64,000 nucleotides of DNA from positions 99,448,001 through 99,512,000 of the forward strand of contig NC_043002.1 in the NCBI RefSeq assembly GCF_006345805.1, in the 5' to 3' direction. Under the pieces are notes generated by a model, which was not told the DNA's origin, ran no database searches, and saw only the letters and a list, made by a program, of their open reading frames with translations. Both the position numbers and the translations under genes were made by a program. This DNA comes from Octopus sinensis (Eukaryota). This document shows positions 3,345-63,470 of this stretch, piece after piece. How positions within the stretch are numbered: the first letter of the stretch is position 1; the number at the start of each line of letters is the position of its first letter.

Positions 3345-4015
3345 AATTTAAATGAGGGTGAGAAATTAGATATCAATTTAATTAACATCGATTTCACACC
3401 AGAGGTCTAGCATATCAGAAAACTGAAGGTTCAGTAAAATTGTATTATATACATATTAGAGGGAAACCACTATGTGGACATCCTTATGCTAGAAATAGAT
3501 CCGCTAAGGTCTTACCACTAAGAAATGTTCTCAAGAAAAATTTAGCAAAACAACCAAAACGTAATCGAGTAGGACAAAAGAAAAAGCTATAAAAATATGG
3601 ATTATTCGCATACATGTTTCTCTGTTAACATATTACGTAATTTTACTTACATAAATGTCCGTAAATCATCGGTGCGACCGTCCAGATGAATATAATTTGC
3701 TGGACTGCATATAGGACGTCCTCAAAAAGTCAGACTAGTAAACAGTTCTACCCATTACACTCGTGGTTACTATTTCAAATGTCCTCGTTTTAAATTTAAA
3801 TTTAAATTAATACGTTCTCTAACCTGCAAAGGCCACTGCAGTAAAGTATTATCTGCAGCATCAGTTTTTCCGGTAATTTAGGGCGCCGAAACGAGGACAT
3901 TTGACATAGTAACCACGAGTGTAACGAGTAGAACTATTTACAAATCTGACTTTGTGTGGACGTCCTAGTATGCAGTCCTGCCAATTATATTCATCTGGAC
4001 GGTTGCACCGATGAT
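3345..4015 (-). mobile_element. Penelope-like/retrozyme-type non-coding element with fold-back and hammerhead
   Basis: Begins at a (TA)n tract; imperfect inverted repeat of about 126 bp (3665-3790 vs 3889-4015); HHR motif at 3606-3677. Confidence 0.65.
3606..3677 (-). ncRNA. Type I hammerhead ribozyme motif (U4C core, long stem II)
   Basis: Minus strand reads TCGCA-CCGATGA-[TTT..ACAT.TTATGTAA-GTAAAA-TTACGTAA.ATGT..AGA]-GAA-ACA/TGT-A-TGCGA: 5-bp stem I, palindromic stem III, GUA cleavage triplet. Confidence 0.75.
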
Positions 4016-4607
4016 ATCTTGGACGCAGGAGTATAGCTAGGAAATTCTGGCTAATCTCCCTGTATCATTTGGCTAAACGACTCCTCAATACAGATTCCAT
4101 TAGAAAAGAAGAAACACTGTATTGAAAATTACTACTAGATTTTGAAAGGGTATTACATGGCGAGAAGTCATACGTTATGCAGAAAAAAACCATTGACAGG
4201 TTGAAGAATTTCTGCATTCTTTAAACAAAAATTGTTCTCTAATCACTATAGATAAAGATAATCCGCCTATAGTAAATAATATACAGAAGGATACTAATAA
4301 ACATAATTCAAAAGAAACCATAATATCATATGATTTAGTAACTAGAAGATAACTAAATGATAGTGCATAAAGAAGTGGGTGGAAAAATTGCCATGACAAA
4401 TAAAGAATAATTAGAAAGATTGAAGTAATTAAAATGAGTAGGAAAGATTTCTGGAAATCTAATTATATATGCTATTACTATTAAGGCATTCGTCGTGAAC
4501 GCAAAATGGACTTACAAACTCGAGGTATGCTAATGGTATATTTGCAGGGGATTAATTTTTAAAATAATTAAATCGTAACATAAGTTAAATCTTCTTGTTC
4601 AAAACAT

Positions 4608-4660
4608 TAGACTCTGACGAAAGAATAATCAACGATTATTCGAGGCATAGGTTGTATCTA
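4608..4660 (+). ncRNA. Degenerate hammerhead motif
   Basis: TAGA-CT-CTGACGA-AA-GAATAATC-AAC-GATTATTC-GAGG(for GAAA)-CA..TGT-A-TCTA; perfect 8-bp stem II, but the GAAA core is mutated. Confidence 0.5.
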
Positions 4661-5054
4661 GCCTTCCCTACATTATAAGGTAGAGCACTAGGTGAATATT
4701 GACCATTTGTTATCGTATTTCATGTTTTTATATATATCAACAATCCAAAGCGAACGGCGTAGAATACATTTTATGTTTCCGTGCATAAATTTTCCAGGTA
4801 TTAATGAATTAACCAAAGTAATTATCCGTCTTTAAATACATATAAAAATAAATTTTCTTTTCTTGCTTCGGTACTCATTGACGCATTTAGTTACATCATT
4901 ATTTTTTTCTTTTACAATCATATAAACACGACAGTTGTTGATGACAAGTGGGAATGTTCGATGTAAACATTTGATATCAGTTAAAATATAGATCTTCTGA
5001 CACATCCTATCATATAGAGGTATAATCTGTTTTTCTTCACGCACATAGTGTTAT

Positions 5055-8754: not shown

Positions 8755-9377
8755 GGTCTATGTAAATAAGTATCTATGCATATATGCATGTATGCGTGTA
8801 TGTATGTATAATATTTTTCCTTAAACTTTCATGTCCGTATATAGTGAATTGTATAGAATAATATAAATAGAATACTTCGGGAAATTGATACTCCCAAAGT
8901 GTTATCCGAATTCATCCAACATACATACATTATTCTGGCTTCTATATTTGTCATGACATCCTTTATGAATATTAAATGATCACAGTTAGTTTCTCCGTGC
9001 TTTTACTTCTAACTACTTAAAGGTTGCTATGTTACCTCTTACGTATTTAACAATAAAATCAATAGTATATATCAAGGATATGACAAACAGTTTCACTGCT
9101 TATAATTTTGTATTTGTGAAAATGTAAATTATAAGATATACTTTATTCATAAATTTTATATTATGTACAGTTTTGACTATGATACGTTTCACAATATAAT
9201 GTGACAGTGAAATAGATTAAACCAGAAGCAAATAAATAGAGCTTACGATTGTTGATACACACACACACGCACATTTAAACAGTTAAAAATTTGCCACATC
9301 AAATTGGTGACAGACTTTACTGCTTAAAATAGTTACTACTTTATCTTTTCTTGCGATTTTACAACTACGTATATATA

Positions 9378-9506
9378 TAAATGTGAAACAAGGTGGAAAA
9401 AAGAGTACTCAAATACCAGGGGTAGAGTAATATGCTTTATTTAAAAGCAGCAGAAATATAACAAAAGCTGTTACTCGGAGTTTCACGTTCCCGTTCGTCG
9501 GACAAC
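9378..9506 (-). mobile_element. HHR element family B, solo copy between (TA)n tracts
   Basis: Reverse complement of 18879-19005 with substitutions; TA repeats on both sides. Confidence 0.8.
9467..9506 (-). ncRNA. Minimal type I hammerhead ribozyme motif (family B, U4C)
   Basis: Minus: GTTGT-CCGACGA-ACG-GGAA-CGT-GAA-ACTC-C-GAGT-A-ACAGC. Confidence 0.8.
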
Positions 9507-9577: not shown

Positions 9578-9785
9578 TTGGCAAACGGTCAGCAATTTTC
9601 GGAAAGACGGGGATGAGTAAGTTGAGTATATTGATCCTAGTGACCAACTCGTATATATATGTTCAAGCCAGAAAGAACGACTAGCAAAGTTACCCTAAGC
9701 GCTATTTGAACTCAGAGCGTTAAGACCGACAAAATGCCGCTAAGTATTTTGCCAGTCGAACTAACGATTCTGCCAGTTTGCAGCA
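9578..9785 (-). mobile_element. SINE family 1 (GGCGGCGAGCTGGCAGAA type), diverged copy
   Basis: Reverse complement of the 13494/54603 family (TTTGAACTCAGAGCGT...AACGATTCTGCCAG). Confidence 0.75.
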
Positions 9786-9816
9786 TTTATGACCGTATAA
9801 TATTAATAAATATTAA

Positions 9817-10030
9817 GGCGTCCAGCTTGCATAATCGTTAGCATCCTGGGAAAAATGCTTAGCGGCATTTCGTCCGACGTTACGTTCTGAATTCAAATTC
9901 TGCCAAGTTGGACTTTGCTTCTCATATATCGGGGACGATAAAATCAGTACCAGTTGTAGATTGTGGTCGATATGATCGACATACTCCCTCCCAGGAAATT
10001 AATGACGCTGTTGCCAAAATGAGAAACCAA
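9817..10030 (+). mobile_element. SINE family 1, diverged copy
   Basis: AATCGTTAGCA...AAATGCTTAGCGGCATTTCGTC...TACGTTCTGAATTCAAATTC aligns to the family. Confidence 0.8.
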
Positions 10031-10497
10031 TACCAGTATAATTTATGTACATTTTCTCATGTAGGTTTGACGTATAAAATTAAGAGGCATATTATTAATT
10101 TCTATTCTAAGGATAACTTCGTAAGAAGTTGTAAATATTTCTGTGGTTTTTAGTATAAAACTATGTTTTTCAAAGATAATATCTGGATATATATCTTGCA
10201 TTAATAGTTTAACTATAGAGCTTTATACCCTTCTCTGGACAATTGCAATCAGTAATGTGAAAGGCCATTCAAAATTCCTAGATGTAGTCAATTATTGAAC
10301 AACAATATCTTATTTCTACGGAACTCCATGAAAATAACAGAAAATAATTTCAGCGTCACTTGAACATAGAATATTAAGGGCAAAGACTTATTACGATAAT
10401 ATACTTTGTTTCGACGCCCTACTGTCTCTTCCATGGTTGTATGTCATATCTATGACTACAATTAAATAGTAAGTCATGTTTCATGAACACAATATTC

Positions 10498-13215: not shown

Positions 13216-13493
13216 CCATTTCTATCAGGAAATGTGTTAAAATGTCATACACACACACACACAAACGCACACAAAAACACACACACAAATACATACACAC
13301 AAAAACACACACACAATCAGAATGCTCGATCACATTAGCGATCATGTGATAACATGCTGAAGAAGTCTTAGCAATTTAAGACATGTTATAAAGATCTGTG
13401 AATAAATGAATACTCTCTGTTTTTATATTTATTTATTTATTACTAGGGCACGATTTAAACAAAATGTGCTTTTCAGAAAACATGCCGCCTTAT

Positions 13494-14035
13494 GGCGGGG
13501 AGCTTGCAGAATCGCTAGCACGCCGGGCGAAATGCTCAGCGGTATTTCGTCTACCGTTACGTTCTGAGTTCAAATTCCGCCGAGGTCGACTTTGGCTTTC
13601 ATCCTTTCGGGGTCGATAAACTAAGTACCAATTATGCACTGGGGTCGATATAATCGACTTAATCTGTCTTTCTGTCCTTGTTTGTCTCGTCTGTGGGTAG
13701 TAAAGAAATAGGTATTTCGTCTGCTTTTATGTTCTGAGATCAAATTCCGCCGAGGTCGACTTTGCTTTTCATTCTTTCTGGATCGATTAAATAAGTACCA
13801 GTTACGCACTGGTGTCGATCTAATCGACTTAATCCCTTTGTCTGTCCTTGTTTGCCCGCTCTCTGTTTAGTCCCCTGTGGGCAAGAAATAAATAAAGATA
13901 TTATCATTATCCAACTTTACATTTTGAGTTCAAATTCCACCGTAGTCTAAATGTACCAGTTGAGCACTGGGGTTGATGTAATCGACTTAGCTCCTCACCC
14001 GAAATTGGTGGCCCTGTGCCGAAATTAGAAACCAA
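13494..14035 (+). mobile_element. SINE family 1, young copy with internally repeated body
   Basis: tRNA-like head with B-box-like GAGTTCAAATTCC; core GTCGACTTTGGCTTTCATCCTTTCGGGGTCGATAAA..AGTACCA; body repeated at about 13711-13890 and partially at 13915-14035. Confidence 0.9.
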
Positions 14036-15809: not shown

Positions 15810-16000
15810 AACGAGCTGGTATAATGGTTAGGCGAAACGCTCAGTGGTATTTTGTCCCTTCTTACATTGAGTTCAAATTCCACCGAGGTTGAGTTTGCCT
15901 TACCTCATTTCGGTTTCGATAAAATAAGTACCAGTTGGAAACTGGGGCAAATGTAATCGACCTACCCATCGCTCAAATTTACTGGCGAAGGCGAAACCAA
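15810..16000 (+). mobile_element. SINE family 1, diverged copy
   Basis: GAGTTCAAATTCCACCGAGGTTGAGTTTGCCTT...CGATAAAATAAGTACCAG. Confidence 0.75.
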
Positions 16001-18682: not shown

Positions 18683-18793
<111 letters not shown>

Positions 18794-18825
18794 TTTATTT
18801 GAAGCAGCAGAAAATTCTACAAAAC

Positions 18826-18862
18826 CTGTTACTCTGAGTTTCACGTTGCCGTTCATCGGACA
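18826..18862 (-). ncRNA. Hammerhead motif, inverted copy (family B)
   Basis: Minus: TGT-CCGATGA-ACG-GCAA-CGT-GAA-ACTC-A-GAGT-A-ACA. Confidence 0.75.
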
Positions 18863-18878
18863 TTTTTTCTAGCAAAAA

Positions 18879-18916
18879 CTGTCCGATGAACGGCAACGTG
18901 AAACTCAGAGTAACAG
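18879..18916 (+). ncRNA. Minimal type I hammerhead ribozyme motif (family B, U4C)
   Basis: CTGT-CCGATGA-ACG-GCAA-CGT-GAA-ACTC-A-GAGT-A-ACAG; predicted cleavage between 18912 and 18913. Confidence 0.85.
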
Positions 18917-19019
18917 GTTTTGTAGAATTTTCTGCTGCTTTAAATAAAGCATATTACTCTACCAGTGGTATTTGAGTACTCTTTTTTTCCATCTTGTTTC
19001 ACATTTATGTGTTTACTCC

Positions 19020-19060
<41 letters not shown>

Positions 19061-27050: not shown

Positions 27051-27809
27051 AGGGTTACTTGCGGAAGCTGATTAAAAAAAAAAACTGCTGTCTTGTATTT
27101 CATTTAATTATCTTAAGTTAATTAAGTATATTTTACAGTCACTTGAAGCCGAAAATCGTTTACCTGATGTTGAGTCTAATTTATGGGTATTTTAATTTAT
27201 ATTTAAGTGCTTTGTGTCACTTCCAACTTTTCGTCATTTTACGTATTTCATTGAATAAACACTCTGAATCACATTAACGCCGCTTTAAATTTTTCCTTAA
27301 CCTAACCAATTCACAGTTTTCCATTTCTAATTGATTCATAACTTAAAAAAAAACAGCCTTGTGTCCGCTTCCGACCTTTTCAAGAACAGCCTATCATAGT
27401 GTTAGCTTTCCTGAATCATCTAACTTTTTTAGAAAATAATTAGTTACATTGATTCATTTATTTAACAGTAGATAATCAATAGCCGTTTCCTATAAACATT
27501 TTAATGTATCCATTCTTGCTCTTATTTTACTGTTGCCTACACTATATGTATACATGGAAAAGCGGAAGGACGTTTAATTAACTTTTTTGCTGAATTGTAT
27601 CATAAACAAAAGAGACAACAAATTTATCAAGATTCTTCTCTCCTCTCATTCTTCTCTTTTTCTTCTCTCTGTACCCTATCCTTTCTGTCTGTCTATTTGT
27701 CTGTCTCTCTGTCTCCCTCTCTCTCTCTCCCTATATATATATATATTATATATATATATTATATATATATATATAATATATATATATATATAATATATAT
27801 ATATATATG

Positions 27810-28009
27810 CATGCGTGTGTACCGTTGGCGATTTTGTTTCCTCTGTCTTCTCTTCTCTGGATCTTTCCTTCTCCTATGTTTCCGACGAAGAGCTCCGCTC
27901 GAAACGTTAAACCCTCCTTCTTTCCTTCTTTCCTGAGCGTCCAATAATACTATATTTGTTCCACGTCCTCGCGCTGTTGTGTTTTCTCTTTGTGTTTTCA
28001 TGTTTGGAT

Positions 28010-28015
<6 letters not shown>
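27810..28015 (+). mobile_element. HHR element family A (about 205 bp) between (TA)n tracts
   Basis: Homologous to 31690-31893 (-), 52870-53065 (-) and 63360-63470 (+). Confidence 0.85.
27878..27912 (+). ncRNA. Minimal type I hammerhead motif (family A, U4C)
   Basis: GTTT-CCGACGA-A-GAGC-TCC-GCTC-GAA-ACGT-T-AAAC; loopless palindromic stem III. Confidence 0.75.
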
Positions 28016-28042
<27 letters not shown>

Positions 28043-28047
<5 letters not shown>

Positions 28048-28953
28048 ATAAAAATGGTAAATAATTTTCCTGTGGTTTTTCATGTAACCAACAATTATTT
28101 ACCGGTAAATTTCGGTATGTAAATACGACAAATTAATTGTCAGGACCTTTGTAAGGTTCAGTATATAGTAAAGAAAAAATAAGATGGCTAGCAGCAGGCT
28201 GTTTCGCCTCATACCGAAGGAATTAGAAATGGCAGTCAAAGACCGTTTTTTCCATTTTCTATAAGTGGAGATTCCAAAAACGAAGGCCCTTACGGCTAAC
28301 ATACACAAAACCGGAGTGGCAAATACACGAAATCAGTCACTTACCGTTAATAGCGAACACGTGTTTCTGGATCGCAAACATAGAAAAAATTAGTTTGAAT
28401 TCCGTCATCGGCGCTATATTCGATAGCTTTACCAAATGCCAGCAGCCCTCACTTCTGACCCAGCGACATCAGATAGTGGGGGGAAGAGCGCAGATGTTAA
28501 AACTAAGTAACGACTGGGAACGTAAATTTTCCCTCCAAAATCCTGCCATGCGCGCTTTCTGGGTAATCGTAATGGAATGAGGAATCCACATGGTAATGCA
28601 ATAAAAATGGTAAATAATTTTCCTGTGGTTTTTCATGTAACCAACAATTATTTACCGGTAAATTTCGGTATGTAAATACGACAAATTAATTGTCAGGACC
28701 TTTGTAAGGTTCAGTATATAGTAAAGAAAAAATAAGATGGCTAGCAGCAGGCTGTTTCGCCTCATACCGAAGGAATTAGAAATGGCAGTCAAAGACCGTT
28801 TTTTCCATTTTCTATAAGTGGAGGTTCCAAAAACGAAGGCCCTTACGGCTCACATACACAAAACCGGAGTGGAAAAAACGGTCTTTGACTGCCATTTCTA
28901 ATTCCTTCGGTATGAGGCGAAACAGCCTGCTGCTAGCCATCTTATTTTTTCTT

Positions 28954-28962
<9 letters not shown>
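28043..28962 (-). mobile_element. Retrozyme/Penelope-like element: 1.5 copies of a 553-bp monomer plus inverted tail, in (TA)n
   Basis: 28043-28319 repeats at 28596-28872 (2 differences seen); 28870-28962 is the reverse complement of about 28715-28808; HHR at 28350-28417. Confidence 0.85.
28350..28417 (-). ncRNA. Type I hammerhead ribozyme motif (U4C, extended stem II)
   Basis: Minus: ATAGCG-CCGATGA-C-GGA..CAAAC-(loop)-GTTTG..TCC-A-GAA-ACAC/GTGT-T-CGCTAT; perfect 6-bp stem I and 8-nt palindromic stem III. Confidence 0.8.
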
Positions 28963-29009
<47 letters not shown>

Positions 29010-29535
29010 TGTATGTATATATGTATGTGTGTATGTGTGTATGGATACAAGTTACATTATTATGAGTTCCATAACATACCTACTATATTTACGAAACTCA
29101 CTAAAGCCATCTTGTCAATTTTGTTGCCGCAGAAAAATATACTCTCGTTGATCTTTTTTTTATTATTCCAGGTCAGTTATGATGCGCAGATCTATAACTT
29201 AAAGACTTTCAAGCCGTGTCTCTCTTGTTCCTTTTGTATATCCAAAAATATATAGTCTAATTTATATTTGCTTCTTTTAAAGGTAAAACGTGTTTCGTGT
29301 ATATTTGGTTGACATAACTGTCAGTTGGAACAATCATCTAGAGTTTTTATCGTAATCTTTGGTTCCAGAGTTCCGGTTTTGCTTTGATTTGTAACAGAAT
29401 GTTGTAACTCTATTGCTCTTTGTGAATAATTTTGACGTTCAGTTAAGTGACTTTTAGAACGCAAATATCACTTCACCTTTTTACGTAAATGAGTAAACTT
29501 AAACAGCGTCCCAATGTTGTTGCGATTATCGCAAG

Positions 29536-29930
29536 GCGAACTTAAAAATACTATAAACCAACTAAATGATGACCTCGCATTTGCCTACAAAGGAAATTCG
29601 TAGTCCTTTGGTTTGAGATCGGCAATGTTTTCAGATAAAGTCAGATAAATTATTTAGGATATTCTTTACTTGGCACTCCAACGCCATATATTTAAAATGT
29701 TAAATTCACTTAAATTTCAAAAGCTAATAAACTCGATGTTCTTATACAGCTACAGAAAATCATAAAACACAATAAAATGTTGTTGCGAACTTAAAAATAC
29801 TATAAACCAAGTAAATGATGACTTCGCATTTGCCTACAAAGGACATTCGTAGTCCTTCGGTTTGAGATCGGCAATGTTTTCAGATAAAGTCAGATAAATT
29901 CTTTAGGATATTCTTTACTTGGCACTCCAA
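29536..29930. repeat. Direct duplication of 146 bp, offset 249 bp
   Basis: 29536-29681 vs 29785-29930, about 5 substitutions. Confidence 0.9.
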
Positions 29931-31689: not shown

Positions 31690-31893
31690 TAGTTAATCCA
31701 AACATGAAAACACAAAGAGAAAATACAACAACGCGAGGACGTGGAACAAATATAGTGTTATTGGATGCTCAGGAAGGAAAGAAAGAAGGAGGATTTAACG
31801 TTTCGAGCGGAGCTCTTCGTCAGAAACATAAGAAAAGGAAAGATCCAAAGAAGGGAAGATGGAGGAAAAGAATCGCCAACGGTACACACGCGG
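31690..31893 (-). mobile_element. HHR element family A
   Basis: Reverse complement of 27810-28015; flanked by TA/CA repeats. Confidence 0.85.
31793..31827 (-). ncRNA. Minimal type I hammerhead motif (family A, canonical CUGACGA)
   Basis: Minus: GTTT-CTGACGA-A-GAGC-TCC-GCTC-GAA-ACGT-T-AAAT. Confidence 0.8.
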
Positions 31894-32162: not shown

Positions 32163-32204
32163 TTCTAGATTTGCATTTCGGAATGCTCAGCCTCGTCAGT
32201 AGAA
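32163..32204 (-). ncRNA. Minimal type I hammerhead motif (singleton)
   Basis: Minus: TTCTA-CTGACGA-GG-CTGAGCATT-CC-GAA-AT-GCAA-AT-C-TAGAA; canonical core, AUC triplet, 5-bp stem I. Confidence 0.7.
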
Positions 32205-38347: not shown

Positions 38348-38433
38348 TTCACGACAGCTGTTTCCAACGAAATTTTAATTGATTAATGGAGATATTACAT
38401 CATTAGATAAAAAATACGTTTTCATCAGGTAAA
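38348..38433 (-). ncRNA. Type I hammerhead motif with long stem II
   Basis: Minus: TTTAC-CTGATGA-A-AACG...TAATG..CATTA...CGTT-G-GAA-ACAG/CTGT-C-GTGAA; canonical core, GUC triplet, palindromic stem III; beside a TA/CA tract. Confidence 0.7.
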
Positions 38434-50666: not shown

Positions 50667-52119
50667 CTATACTACTACTACTTCCACCACTACCACACCA
50701 CCACAATCACCATCACCACCAGGCACATGCATAGGTATATACACACAAACACACACACACCAATACATACACACGCATTGAACTTTTAGGACGCTGAGGA
50801 AAGGTAGGTAGGTGTGAGGAATACATAGCTTCAAGGAGGGAGGGCGATTGTGAAGTTGACGACAGATGTTCATACTGTCCATCACACTCACACACACACA
50901 CTGACACACAGACACGCACACTGATACACACACACTCACACTGACACACATACATTCATATGTAAAGCCGATGAAACCCTGAATGGAAGCAATGGAGAGG
51001 AAAGGGTTTAAATAAATTAATATGCAGTGGTAGGGGATTGGTGAGTTTATATAAGCTGTTGTTCAGATCGTCAACATACTATCACTCTCTCCGTTCTCTC
51101 TCTCTCTCTCTCTCTACGATTTGCTGGAAATAACAGCCAAATCTCTCTCAATGTCACACTCTAATATTATATAAACGAGAGGACACATTGGATAAGAAGG
51201 AAAAAACTACACCCGTGCACACACACGTATGCATTCCCTATAAAAGAACTTTCTGTTTTCTCACCCACCATTCTTATCTTCTATACTTTCCGCTCACCTC
51301 TCTCCTTCATGACCCGATGACCTGGAAGTTGTTGCTCTTCCATTACTTTCGCAAAGAGCAGTAACTTTCTTCAGCTGAATACACGTTACTGATTGGTTAA
51401 AATTACCCAAATACGACAACTTTAACACGAAATAACTTCTAAAATACAAAATGTTGTGGAAAAACGTTGAGTATACCGTGTTCTACGTGACGCATTCAAC
51501 CAGTGTCCTAAGTTTCAAATTGTTTATTAAAAAATAAATTTATCAAAAAATCTGAGACTGAGATTTCAATCCAAGAATTTAAACAGATATTTTTTAAAAT
51601 ATTTTTTTCATTCAGCTGCTGCCGTTTAAAGTTGTTTGCTTAACGAAAATATATTATTTGTGATATATATGAAAGCTGCATTTAGAAATTTATTTAACGA
51701 CCATTTGGAAATAATCAATTAAATCTCAATTTCAGTTTGAAATATCATATCTACTTTCATCTTTATCAAGGATCTCTTCAAAAACTTAATGTCATTTTGA
51801 AGTCATTCGTATTAATATTCTGATATTTTTTATTTATGTAACATGTTCTTATATAAGGACACACATACACATGAATACGCAATCAAACATACTCCCCCAC
51901 ACGTAACTGGAGTAAGATTGGACTGCAAAGATGTGATTTGTCATCAGTCACTTACAAAGATGTGTTCTGCAAAAAAACATTAGCAAGAAAAGCAGAAACA
52001 ACATGATGATGAACTAGCATTTAACACTATAACTGCAGTGCTCATATGCTCTACTGTATTACTATTGATCATTAATTCAACTCTGAGTTTACTTAATTCG
52101 ATGTTGTCAAATATATTAA

Positions 52120-52497
52120 GGCAGCGAGTTGACAGAAACGTTAGCACGCCGGGCGAAATGCTTTGCGGTATTTCGTTTGCCGTTACGTTCTGAGTTCAAA
52201 TTCCGCCGAGGTCGACTTTGCCTTTCATCCTTTCGGGGTCGATTAAATAAGTAACAGTTACGCACTGGGGTCCATGTAATCGACTTAATCCCTTTGTCTG
52301 TCCTTGTTTGTTCCCTCTGTGTTTAGCCCCTTCTGGATAGTAAAGAAATAGGTATTTCGCCTGCCGCTACCTTCTGTGTTTAAATTCCGCCGAGGTCAAC
52401 ATTACCTTTATTCATTTCGGTGTCGATAAATTAAGTACAAGTTGCATACTGGGGTCAATCTAATCGACTGGTCCACTCCTCCACAATGTTGGGCCTG
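52120..52497 (+). mobile_element. SINE family 1, young copy with duplicated body
   Basis: Near-identical to the 13494 and 54603 copies; second body starts at about 52351. Confidence 0.9.
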
Positions 52498-52869: not shown

Positions 52870-53065
52870 TAGTTTATGCAAACATGAACAAGCAAGAAAA
52901 TACAACACGTGGACGTGGAATACGTACAGTGTTATTGGACGCTCGAGGAAGGAAAGTAAAGAAAGATTTCACGTTTCCTGACGAGCTCTTCATCAGAAAG
53001 ATAGAAAAAGTCCAAAGAAGAGATGACTGAGAAAGAAAATCGCCAACGATACACACGCGGTCCGG
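52870..53065 (-). mobile_element. HHR element family A, diverged; HHR 52966-53000 probably inactive
   Basis: Minus: TTT-CTGATGA-AGAGCTCGTCAG-GAA-ACGT-G-AAA; stem II disrupted and G at the cleavage position. Confidence 0.8.
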
Positions 53066-53627: not shown

Positions 53628-54602
53628 ACACATACACATATATATGACTTTTTAGATATAAGGAGATAACAGATTGATTATATCCTTACATGAAAATGGC
53701 CATCACATGTTAGATATATTAGGGATGTTATTATGAGCACTGTAGTATCAGGCATCGCTAACACCTTAATATTGTAAATTTCAGAGGTGTTACCTTTAAA
53801 TCAATAACAGAGATATAATACAAACCTAATAGAAAGAAAATTGAATCTTTGATCAATTTTTAATATGATATAGATAGACTATCGTATTTAGAATTAAACG
53901 AAATGGAAGTGTATGTGTTTTTACCTGTTCTTCAACGTCTATAGTGACACTTCCACGATATAATCGCTTCCAATTCAACCCCTGTCTCGGATCAAGTCGC
54001 TGAACAACTATAACTAGAAAATGTAATTTATATGCACGATAACATCGTAGATTACTTAATGAGAGACTGCAACCTAGCTTTTCCTCTTGATTAACCTTTG
54101 TTCAGTCCACTTACGTCTGAAAGTAATTTAACTTTACACAAAGCCCTTGACGTTCACCATATCTCAAAGAAAGCAACAATTATTTTTGAGATATGCAGGA
54201 CAATTGATGACTTAAGCGTGAAGATACCTAAACTTTGTATTTATAATATCGGAAATGCATCACCGATATGAAAGAGAATTTGAAAATGAGTTAAGATTGA
54301 TTTATGTTAGTAAATTGGATTTCATGCATCAGAAATCCCACACACAAAACATATATATATACTCAACACACTATTATATACACGCCAACATGATTACATA
54401 TGTGGCATCAAAGAAGTCATTGCGGTATTGCCTCTATACCATAATAATGAACGAAAGATTGCAAAGTGATGAACATTAGAAGAATTTCTGCTTTTTAATG
54501 CATACAATCATATCAGCACAATAAGTATTGGTGGAATTTTTCCCCGAAAGGTTCTACCAAGTGTAAACATAGCAATCCTCATATAGGTATTTAAAATAGA
54601 AA

Positions 54603-54840
54603 GGCGGCGAGCTGGCAGAATCATTAGCACGCCGGGCGAAATGCTTAGCGGTATTTCGCCTGCTGCTACGTTCTGAGTTCAAATTCCGCCGAGGTCGACT
54701 TTGTCTTTCATCCTTTTGAGGTCGATTAAATAAGTACCAGTTACGCACTAGGGTCGATATAATCGACTGAATCCGCTTGTCTGTCCTTGTTTGTCCTCTC
54801 TGTGTTTAGCCCCTTGAGGGTAGTAAAGAAATAGGTATTT
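54603..54840 (+). mobile_element. SINE family 1, young monomeric copy with 20-bp flanking duplication
   Basis: ATAGGTATTTAA(A/G)ATAGAAA at 54583-54602 and 54831-54850. Confidence 0.9.
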
Positions 54841-54964
54841 AAGATAGAAAAGAAAATTCGTATACATTCATAGAGATAAGTTGCTCTTCAGAATATTACT
54901 TTCGAAACCAGTGAGGAAGTAATTATTAAATTACAACTTTCCTCTAATGATATTAATGATAATG

Positions 54965-55166
54965 ATTTCAAATTTTGGCACGATGCCAGAAATTACGGTA
55001 CGGGAATAAGTCGATTTCATCAACACCAGTACTTAACTGGTACTTAGCTTATCGACCCCAGAAGAATGAAAGGCAAAGTCAACCTCGGCGGAATTTGAAC
55101 TCATAATGTAAAGACGAAAGGAATAACGCTAAGCATCTTGCCCGGCGTGCTAACGATTCTGGCAGA
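54965..55166 (-). mobile_element. SINE family 1 copy
   Basis: GAAAGGCAAAGTCAACCTCGGCGGAATTTGAACTC...GCCCGGCGTGCTAACGATTCTG. Confidence 0.85.
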
Positions 55167-55167
55167 T

Positions 55168-55372
55168 CAACAACAACAACAACAACAACAATAATAATAA
55201 TAACGATAATAACGATAATAACTACAGCAGCAACAACAACAGCAGCAACAACGACAACAACAACAACAACAACAACAATAATAATAATAACGATAATAAC
55301 GATAATAACTACAGCAGCAACAACAACAGCAGCAACAACGACAACAACAACAATAATAATAATGATAATAGT
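55168..55372. repeat. (AAC)/(AAT)/(AGC) compound repeat with a higher-order duplication
   Basis: The block AATAATAACGATAATAACGATAATAACTACAGCAGCAACAACAACAGCAGC occurs twice. Confidence 0.9.
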
Positions 55373-55599: not shown

Positions 55600-57540
55600 A
55601 ACTTCCCAAAATTAATTTACCCGCCGTCCAGAAAATAATGACGCCTGGGACTTCTGAACTTTACCCAAGGAACCAGACAACTGGTTAACCCTGTGCGCTT
55701 ATAACACGGCCCAGGATACAAACCATGGAAATACCCGCTAGAACTAGTGACGTTCGAAGAAATCGTTCATCAGTGACCTTAGGTTCTGACACAGAGCTCG
55801 AAAACCTTTTGAATCAGAACCAACTCCTTCAAGAACCCGTAGGAAATCAAACCAGGGATATTCCCGAGACTGACGCTCAGGATCAACCACCAAATCTATC
55901 TCAGAGAAATAGAAATACAAGACAAAAATGGAGTAAAGAGGAATATAACGAAGTTATGCATGCACTTAAACCCAGAAGCTTCAACCACTCAAAAGGAGAC
56001 CTACAATATCTGGAGGTGTAAAAACCTGCACAGCAGCCTGTACATGGACGGTAATAAACTAGGATCTGTGGGACTTGATATCATATAAAATAAAAAAAAT
56101 ACTGACAACGAAATTGACAAAACAGTCACATCGGTCAAAACTCAGCTCCGTAGAACACACTCACTTATACCCACAGGTAAAAATCCCTAAAATCACTAAC
56201 TCAAACCAGCAAACTAGGTACACAGAACCCTATGAAGTTCGACGGTCAGTTGGAACTAATAAGACCTATAAATGATCATGTCAGCAATGAACTGTCAGAT
56301 GGAATGCTAGAACAATATCTAATACAACTCCATCAACTTTTGCACGAAAGACCCCCACTTACGCAAATTTTTAATACTAATAAGAACAGACAAGCAATCA
56401 AAGAAGTTGATCAAGAACTTGGAAAGCTGATACGACAACTCCTTGAGAATAGTAGTGAAAATGCCCTCGAAGTAGTTGATCAACCTATTTACTCAGCAGC
56501 CTATGTTGCAGCTCAGAAATGCGGTATTAAAATTAGAGTTAGACAAAAGAGCAATGTATACAAACGGTCTGCATGGATAGAAAGAATAAACCGGGAAGTA
56601 ATCCAACTAAGAGCAGATATACTTTCCTTCTTGAAGCAAGCAAAGAGAAAACTAATAAACGCAAGAGACTAATAAGAATAATTGCTAAACATGACCTTTA
56701 CAAGAAAACAAAAGATACGCAGATTGAAATCCTCAAACAAAAACTACAATTAAAAACCAAACGACTGGTAAGGTACAAAAAAAAAAGAAAACGCTCAGCA
56801 TTCCATAAACAAAACTACCATGCAAACATCCTTAAAGACGGATTTGACTCGTCGTGCAGAATTTTCAGAAAATTCACAGAGACAAATGATCATGTTGCTT
56901 CTGGCTGCCTAGTCCTCGCTGAACAGGAGTACCTCATAAGACATGATAGACTAGGGCAGTACATCCACTGGAATGCTTGTAAATACTACAGAATTAAATC
57001 TCACGGTAAGTGGTACAGGCACCATACAGAGGATGTAGTAAATGGCGAGGGCGTCACCATCCTTTGGAACTTCCCAATACAAACAAACAGAAAAGTTAAC
57101 TCCAATCACGGATCAAAACAAAAGAACTGTTTATAGATACGTCTGTACCACAAGATCAAAATGTCTCAGGAAAAAATATACGAAAATATTTCTCGCTATA
57201 AAGATCTGAAAATTGAAATCACAAACATGTGGAAGCTTAGTACTACGATAATAGGTGTAGTAATTGGTGCGTTGGGAATGATAAAGTAGGGAGCTGAGGA
57301 GTATATCAAGCAACTGCTCGGTAACCCCAGTCTCCGTGAACTGTAAAAGATAACCTTGATGGGTACAGCCCATAAACTATGGAAAGCACTAAAATGGAAT
57401 TGCTGTGGTAATTTTAGCATGCATAGCAAAGCAAATGTGCCCTTGCTACTCTTGACCTCCGGAATATGCCTGGTACTAAGTAAGGTAGCTGAAATAAACT
57501 TATAATGAAAAGAAGCCATAATAATAACAACCACAATAAT
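55600..57540 (+). mobile_element. R4/Dong-like non-LTR retrotransposon (RLE type), internally deleted and frameshifted
   Basis: N-terminal RQKWSKEEYNEVM; pre-RT LKQKLQLKTKRLVRY; zinc knuckle CR...ET..HV.SGC..LAEQEYL.RHD; endonuclease remnants ILWNFPIQT, FIDTSVPQDQNV, RYKDLKIEITNMW, VVIGALG; no RT motifs in between. Confidence 0.85.
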
Positions 57541-63359: not shown

Positions 63360-63470
63360 GACCGCGTGTGTATCGTTGGCGATGCACACGTTTCCTTTTT
63401 CTATGTTTCTGACGAAGAGCTCCCCTCGAAACGGTAAATCCTCCTTTCTTTCTTTCTTTCCTTTCCTGAA
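63360..63470 (+). mobile_element. HHR element family A, truncated; HHR at 63405-63439
   Basis: GTTT-CTGACGA-A-GAG-CTCCC-CTC-GAA-ACGGT-AAAT; adjacent to a TA/TG tract. Confidence 0.8.

Follow-up and report, generated by a model that had tools for sequence, protein, structure and literature searches.

A Non-Coding, Hammerhead-Bearing Repeat of 1.5 Units in a TA Microsatellite of Octopus sinensis: A Probable Non-Autonomous Penelope-Like Retrozyme

Introduction

In animals, circular RNAs have been demonstrated for non-LTR retrozymes, and Penelope-like elements (PLEs) are named as their likely mobilisers in the available text of PMC7229834 and of the review PMC7761336. The circle-template model was known beforehand as a published proposal: according to the accessible portion of PMC4209133, minimal, dimer-type hammerheads of PLEs, together with ligation into circles as templates for more-than-unit copies, were proposed in 2014, and the circle idea is also in print in the accessible portion of PMC7229834. 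Li et al. 2026 (bioRxiv 10.64898/2026.07.22.740005), as far as the available part of the preprint goes, linked retrozymes with units of 51–972 bp to the pseudo-LTRs (pLTRs) of PLEs; 24 of the 57 retrozyme families of Xenopus match transposable elements there, with PLEs making up 21 of 22 of those. Partial tandems, adjacent inverted copies and a bias towards (TA)n are typical of PLEs and are also found in Naiads, which are without canonical hammerheads, and the same source, in its available part, states that the origin of the partial tandems and inversions and the role of the hammerhead are open (PMC8557442). One squid genome paper, in the part available, only counts 235 Rfam hammerhead loci (PMC6962438). 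In literature searches, no description of the family dealt with here was found, and a repeat-library entry under a neutral name may exist.

The window, that is, the whole stretch of 64,000 nucleotides analysed here, contains at 28043..28962 a young insertion of a non-coding, hammerhead-bearing repeat, 1.5 units in length, in a TA microsatellite. Its structure, its family, its ribozyme and its fold are described below, followed by its comparison with the systems above.

Structure of the Insertion

The sense strand is the minus strand, and the features are as follows (positions of the window):

27809..28014, plus strand: neighbouring solo fragment of a different PLE type, with a minimal hammerhead motif at 27882–27908
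28014..28044, no strand: left (TA)n target microsatellite, which is also the 3′ tail of the neighbouring PLE-type fragment
28043..28319, minus strand: direct repeat copy 1, the 3′ part of the full unit (self-comparison)
28043..28595, minus strand: complete 553-nt unit, in which no coding signal was found
28265..28589, minus strand: predicted long imperfect arm enclosing the ribozyme, with a side hairpin at 28478–28450 (folding)
28350..28417, minus strand: type I hammerhead motif, predicted cleavage at 28356/28355 (descriptor)
28595..28596, minus strand: unit junction, where the 3′ end of the partial copy is joined to the 5′ end of the full unit (crossed by other copies)
28596..28872, minus strand: direct repeat copy 2, the upstream 5′-truncated partial unit (pseudo-LTR)
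28870..28962, plus strand: inverted 5′ segment, with TGG inside and TATATA outside
28957..29026, no strand: right (TA)n target microsatellite

By self-comparison of the window, the direct repeats of 277 bp (28043–28319 and 28596–28872) stand at an offset of 553 and mismatch at two places only, 28271/28824 and 28298/28851; a second self-comparison lengthens them to 284 nt at 99%. The full unit of 553 nt has 40.1% GC. The direct part comprises 830 nt, or 1.50 units, and at its 3′ end in the sense direction, 28043, a microhomology of 2 nt (AT) joins it to the target. It passes the predicted cleavage site once and ends 36 nt before the second passage; the ends of the duplication lie away from that site, as had been noticed earlier.

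The inverted segment of 93 nt (28870–28962) is a 100% reverse complement of 28715–28807 (and of 28162–28254). Its inner TGG (28870–28872, 3 of the 93 nt) is common to the direct part, and its outer TATATA (28957–28962, 6 of the 93 nt) is common to the right microsatellite; TATATA occurs once in the 553-nt unit, and the outer end of the inverted segment sits there. Since (TA)n is present on both flanks (28014–28044 and 28957–29026), any target-site duplication would be hidden. The repeats with their offset, the inverted tail joined through TGG and the (TA)n borders of the original prediction were all reproduced.

Moreover, each repeat has a private change (28298 in copy 1 and 28824 in copy 2), and the letter at 28292 is common to both repeats, with shares of under 1% and 10% in the two large contig runs described below and of about two thirds, the majority, in run X4. 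Because both repeats have the 28292 letter and one private change each, the insertion is consistent with one event and a short age. The proposed recent event is accordingly borne out as a fairly recent one by the two differences in 277 bp.

The 553-nt Unit as a Family Feature

In public contigs, part of the stretch is found in 20 of the 24 runs listed, from 8 studies and under four organism labels (A–D). None of the runs listed is recorded as RNA, which carries no information about expression. Four runs (X1, X3, X4 and X8) were mapped on 28180–28732, which takes in a full unit and has both the junction and the ribozyme within it. The repeat family is abundant and high-copy: the two large runs, X1 and X3, have 578 and 439 contigs and a summed word depth of 1e4–1e5 in most bins, a quantity that differs from copy number.

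The listed contig records are 28 of 1051 pieces, and at least three of them (X4 records 22 and 23, and X8 record 24) bridge 28595|28596 with 31 or more letters on each side. With 13, 27 and 4 letters unlike those of the window, these records are other copies, and they come from studies P4 and P6 and organisms A and B, the RNA origin of X4 and X8 being a guessed label. In X4 and X8 together, all three contigs that cover the junction cross it, and X4 record 22 also spans the cleavage site; X1 record 5 (26 letters on one side) and X3 records 13 and 14 (2 letters) were not counted as bridging. Since three diverged contigs from two studies cross the unit junction, the unit of about 553 nt is a feature of the family. 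That is to say, it closes on itself as a family trait, and an origin by accidental truncation of a longer element with coding capacity, the alternative named with the original prediction as a longer coding Penelope element, is disfavoured by the diverged copies that cross the same junction. Such read-through of the junction fits a circle and a tandem transcript alike.

Near the junction, the depth in X1 and X3 is 36763 and 48403 at 28584 and 30804 and 29296 at 28598, with no step up at the junction in either run. Among the 21 of 82 loose ends listed, none lies at 28596 and none near 28595 leads into foreign sequence, in contig data from which those with TA tails may have been removed. Go-back joints of 551 or 553 are present in all 4 runs; they show continuity inside the repeated part only, and circularity was not concluded from them. 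X8 has no cover over 28256–28426, and the depth in X1 and X3 dips at 28370–28388; no conclusion was drawn from either. The inversion joint of the focal locus is not listed in any of the 4 runs, and one contig has an opposite-strand joint elsewhere (28211/28378). Within the 64-kb window, the focal family has no second copy.

In addition, depth peaks and diverged loose ends show that related families share the blocks 28639–28678 and 28206–28248 at the same spacing, which are candidate recognition elements for the mobilising reverse transcriptase (RT); one related-family variant has a different ribozyme core. Searches with a 20-nt ribozyme motif in metagenome contigs and with an 18-nt ribozyme motif in viral contigs gave 0 matches each.

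The Hammerhead Ribozyme

The minus-strand type I hammerhead at 28417–28350 consists of a 6-bp stem I, the core CCGAUGA...GAAA (a U4C core), a long stem II and a 2-bp stem III with a palindromic loop, and it has GUU, with cleavage predicted at 28356/28355. A relaxed descriptor gives 8 matches with a stem I of at least 4 bp in the whole window, the focal hammerhead among them, whereas in 2000 dinucleotide-shuffled versions of the monomer it gives 0 matches with a stem I of at least 6 bp on either strand. The descriptor and this control confirm what had been noticed from the letters, a single minus-strand hammerhead in the single-copy middle of the element.

Rfam gives 0 matches at the gathering score in the whole window, and over 27500–29500 at E ≤ 10 there is no hammerhead family among 19 matches, all of which are hairpins or TA repeats far under the gathering score; the best of them, MIR2646, is the inverted repeat itself. 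The 68-nt hammerhead motif alone folds like its shuffles (z 0.09). At the base of stem II there is a C–A mismatch or one extra A. Minimal PLE hammerheads have a G10.1–C11.1 pair immediately ahead of G12 and a single unpaired base following A9; here the unpaired C and the G–C pair are present, but an extra A stands before GAAA, as it also does in printed family variants. Because Rfam sees no hammerhead and stem II has an irregular base, cleavage by the focal ribozyme may be slow or nil. In the available part of the work on Xenopus, 8 of 9 retrozyme dimers did not cleave in vitro (10.64898/2026.07.22.740005).

A dimeric conformation is favoured in folding, with −32.7 kcal/mol for the ribozyme dimer cofold against 2 × −10.1 kcal/mol for the monomers. 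The palindrome of stem III is kept in variants: about 58–60% of the X3 depth has a CG→TA double change, which is also expected from CpG decay on both strands, and another family variant lacks the central CG with the palindrome still kept. The focal locus carries one hammerhead only, so that this copy cannot itself release a monomer.

Fold and Coding Potential of the Unit

Folded as a circle, the sense unit has −137.1 kcal/mol (z −2.1 against 100 shuffles) with 59% of it paired. In the predicted arm, 28589–28507 pairs with 28344–28265 and encloses the ribozyme; the arm domain alone has a z of −1.1 against shuffles. At 7 places, X1 and X3 each depart from the letter of the window in at least 85% of their depth, and at 6 of these 7 the family letter restores a Watson–Crick pair in register, a result that was reached in 1 of 200000 draws of the null; at strongly paired places, 6 of the 16 variants listed break the pair. 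The pairing register of the arm is real, and the focal copy has begun to decay. This rescue of pairs falls short of proving selection on RNA, since an old inverted duplication would also pass. Both outer ends of the insertion are within the top 5% most accessible stretches of the predicted fold. The U run close to the 3′ end was rejected as a Pol III terminator, there being several such runs inside the unit.

As for coding potential, 9 of the 24 frames of the unit (33–117 aa) were compared with Pfam and gave no family at the cut-off. The longest frame in the unit, 117 aa and antisense, has no homologue among proteins of similar length, and the unit contains no RT or GIY-YIG ORF.

Comparison with Known Systems

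The focal family shares with metazoan non-LTR retrozymes, as described in the available parts of PMC7229834 and 10.64898/2026.07.22.740005, a short non-coding unit with a GC content under 50% and one type I hammerhead per unit, and also the head-to-tail arrangement, the self-paired fold and the presumed mobilisation by PLEs. Its unit length lies within the range of Li et al. 2026 (10.64898/2026.07.22.740005) and exceeds the 170–400 nt of the retrozyme units tested by northern in the text available. Unlike metazoan retrozymes, the focal ribozyme is of the PLE-minimal, dimer-dependent kind with a U4C core and a long stem II, and the focal copy spans 1.5 units, with a single ribozyme and an inverted 5′ segment. 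In the definition of Li et al. 2026, an 'active' retrozyme has at least 2 consecutive units with complete hammerheads, and there is one hammerhead at this locus; judged by this two-hammerhead definition, the focal copy is a derived, inactive one. The family as such has the unit, the ribozyme and the non-coding features of retrozymes, and works like a PLE-mobilised retrozyme.

The element is also similar to EN+ PLEs (PMC4209133; PMC8557442; PMC3846280) in its partial tandem, which stands as a pseudo-LTR, and its adjacent inverted 5′-truncated copy, and to the EN+ PLEs Naiad and Neptune in its insertion bias for (TA)n. The small palindromic stem III is like that of PLE pLTR hammerheads, and the unpaired base after A9 may be so too. 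Unlike EN+ PLEs, the focal unit is without an RT or GIY-YIG frame and is not an autonomous PLE, and no tail of 30–40 bp is definable in the focal element; unlike in PLE pLTRs, its ribozyme is in the single-copy part and not in both repeats.

Non-autonomous Chlamys elements of Chlamydomonas (MRC1, Chlamys-N4) are likewise non-coding, form pLTRs and insert head-to-tail into microsatellites, but their target is (C)n or (CA)n, they mostly have no canonical hammerhead and they belong to another lineage, according to the available parts of PMC8557442 and 10.1101/2022.05.23.493040. Finally, the insertion resembles twin-primed 5′-inverted L1 in having microhomology where either end meets the target and where the inverted segment is joined (PMC2912911), and differs from 5′-inverted L1 in the absence of poly(A), in the TA target and in that the inverted segment duplicates copied sequence.

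Proposed Mechanism

The class and mechanism favoured here, with a probability of about 0.8, are those of a non-autonomous PLE or non-LTR retrozyme with a unit of about 553 nt, mobilised in trans by a PLE. Priming of PLEs through microhomology has been the subject of biochemical work. For expression, cleavage, the PLE partner and the order of the steps, we infer the following course. First of all, tandem genomic copies would be transcribed on the minus strand, and their weak ribozymes would pair through the palindromic stem III and cut as dimers. A Penelope-like RT and a GIY-YIG endonuclease would be supplied in trans, the endonuclease would nick the (TA)n tract, and the 3′ end would anneal to an AU in an unpaired part of the RNA (28043). 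The RT would then make a cDNA of 830 nt, i.e., 1.5 units with one crossing of the cleavage site. The other end would be fixed through the only UAUAUA of the unit, by either twin priming (a second target-primed cDNA) or fold-back of the first cDNA, and both parts would be joined at TGG/CCA.

The inverted tail, for which a template switch had been proposed, need not be one: the switch is one option, and twin priming fits equally well because the outer end of the inverted segment is at the single TATATA of the unit. Fold-back of the first cDNA fits the segment too. For twin priming of the L1 type, the stretch over which the inverted segment repeats previously copied sequence is long. In L1, twin priming is recognised by microhomology at three places, the two target junctions and the inversion joint (PMC2912911), and a fold-back of the first cDNA was suggested for the palindromes of Penelope (PMC3846280).

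Form of the Template

The original prediction held that RT had copied about 1.5 turns of a circle. What stands of it is a reverse-transcribed, more-than-unit copy of a genuine unit of about 553 nt, with the circle as one possible template. Among the possible templates, most weight is given, tentatively and at less than even odds, to a linear transcript of several units in which one ribozyme had not cleaved; it would give the same footprint as a circle. One uncut ribozyme is enough to explain the single crossing of the cleavage site, and the cDNA stop 36 nt before the second passage is near the expected end of a linear RNA cut by a ribozyme further upstream, where the chance of stopping within 40 nt of the site on a circle is, by our own estimate, about 7%. 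Moreover, partial tandems of this kind also arise in hammerhead-free clades of PLEs, as the available part of PMC8557442 has it.

Next in weight, and close behind, comes the possible template of a ligated 553-nt circular RNA, round which RT would have passed 1.5 times; the present copy fits, without proving, copying from such a circle. The unit closes on itself in the contigs of the family with no depth step at the junction, a depth that is summed and no copy number, from data in which TA-tailed contigs may be filtered out. The predicted arm and stem I would keep the two cut ends together for a ligase, and the insertion ends at accessible AU stretches away from the cleavage site. In addition, the retrozymes of coral, mussel and axolotl accumulate as circles, according to the accessible text of PMC7229834. 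The inversion and the TA targeting are routine in the window and no special sign of a circle, because the copy at 18788–19022 and the neighbouring fragment show such anatomy too.

A small share of the weight is left to templates of other kinds, and a monomer with a template jump is unlikely. In this last case, the 3′ end of the element at 28043 would be fixed, as in the pLTR of an ordinary PLE, and the tandem would arise by a jump of RT to a second template, a route that has been proposed for PLEs and for the head-to-tail insertions of non-autonomous Chlamys. It is in its favour that the neighbouring PLE-type family in the window has both ends common to 3 of 4 copies and the 5′ end common to 4 of 4, and that, in the available part of PMC8557442, non-autonomous Chlamys form pLTRs and multicopy head-to-tail insertions without canonical hammerheads. 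Against it, the junction is precise and identical in diverged copies, no loose end at 28596 appears among the 21 of 82 listed, there is no depth step, and the 28292 letter, rare in the two large runs, is in both repeats, which points to one template, although the letter is the majority one in X4.

It is improbable that these 553 nt form the end of a longer PLE with coding capacity, with a junction made by a locus-specific 5′ truncation. The homology of Xenopus retrozymes with PLE pLTRs (10.64898/2026.07.22.740005, available part) and the two blocks shared with related diverged families agree with such an origin, but the at least three diverged records bridge the junction, no listed loose end leads into foreign sequence, all 9 tested frames are without a Pfam family and the 117-aa frame is without a homologue; an autonomous relative may still exist, yet the unit is not merely a piece of it.

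Very improbable is a duplication by slippage or unequal exchange after insertion, or an artefact of assembly: the inversion joint of the locus was not seen in the 4 runs and such structures trouble assemblies (PMC8557442, available part), but the offset equals the unit length of the family in other copies (551–553), each repeat has a private change not expected of a collapsed or duplicated contig, and the junction microhomologies are at sensible places.

Significance

The locus represents a known class cleanly, the literature searches found no description for its lineage, and the family, being young, high-copy and short with a fixed unit length, is a good test case for the form of the template. 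One copy cannot separate a circle from a linear multimer; the distribution of 3′ ends and the copies that run past the second cleavage site can. A wider reading, which we consider doubtful, is that the family propagates via a covalently closed RNA of 553 nt, its thousands of genomic copies being circular permutations primed at a few unpaired AU sites, in which case many more-than-unit copies would run past the second cleavage site. If true, this would support the circle-template model for the retrotransposition of PLEs and retrozymes directly and on the scale of a genome, and the dimer-dependent minimal hammerhead would be shown to be functional.

Other Repeats in the Window

The focal element is inserted in the TA tail of the different PLE-type fragment at 27809–28014 (+). 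This fragment belongs to a solo family of about 200 bp with a minimal hammerhead, fixed ends and microsatellite flanks, whose other copies are at 31691–31891 (−), 52871–53058 (−) and 63364–63462 (+); they are probably solo pLTRs of another PLE family. A second hammerhead-bearing family in (TA)n is present at 18788–19022 (+) and 9369–9504 (−), and the former copy has a 5′ inversion of about 80 bp that ends at an internal ATAT within (TA)n.

At 3611–4015 there is an old head-to-head inverted repeat (75%), followed by decayed frames at about 4050–5050. Within it, a hammerhead-like motif at 3672–3611 (−), with a CCGAUGA core, a long stem II and a z of −2.1, resembles the focal ribozyme in architecture and has no BLAST similarity to it. 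Further matches of the relaxed hammerhead descriptor with a 5-bp stem I are at 32168–32199 (−) and 38353–38428 (−). The direct repeat of 146 bp at 29536–29930 (spacing 249, 97% identical) has no Rfam match at E ≤ 1 and contains a 21-nt stretch that is 76–81% like a conserved block of the focal unit.

The broken frames at 55689–57136 (+) gave no Pfam family at the cut-off, and we take them to resemble a non-LTR retrotransposon with a restriction-like endonuclease. A dispersed repeat with a tandem unit of about 170 bp, presumably a SINE-like family of octopods, is found at 13490–13894, 52110–52469, 54593–55168, 9615–10038 and 15831–15964, its copies being 70–89% alike.
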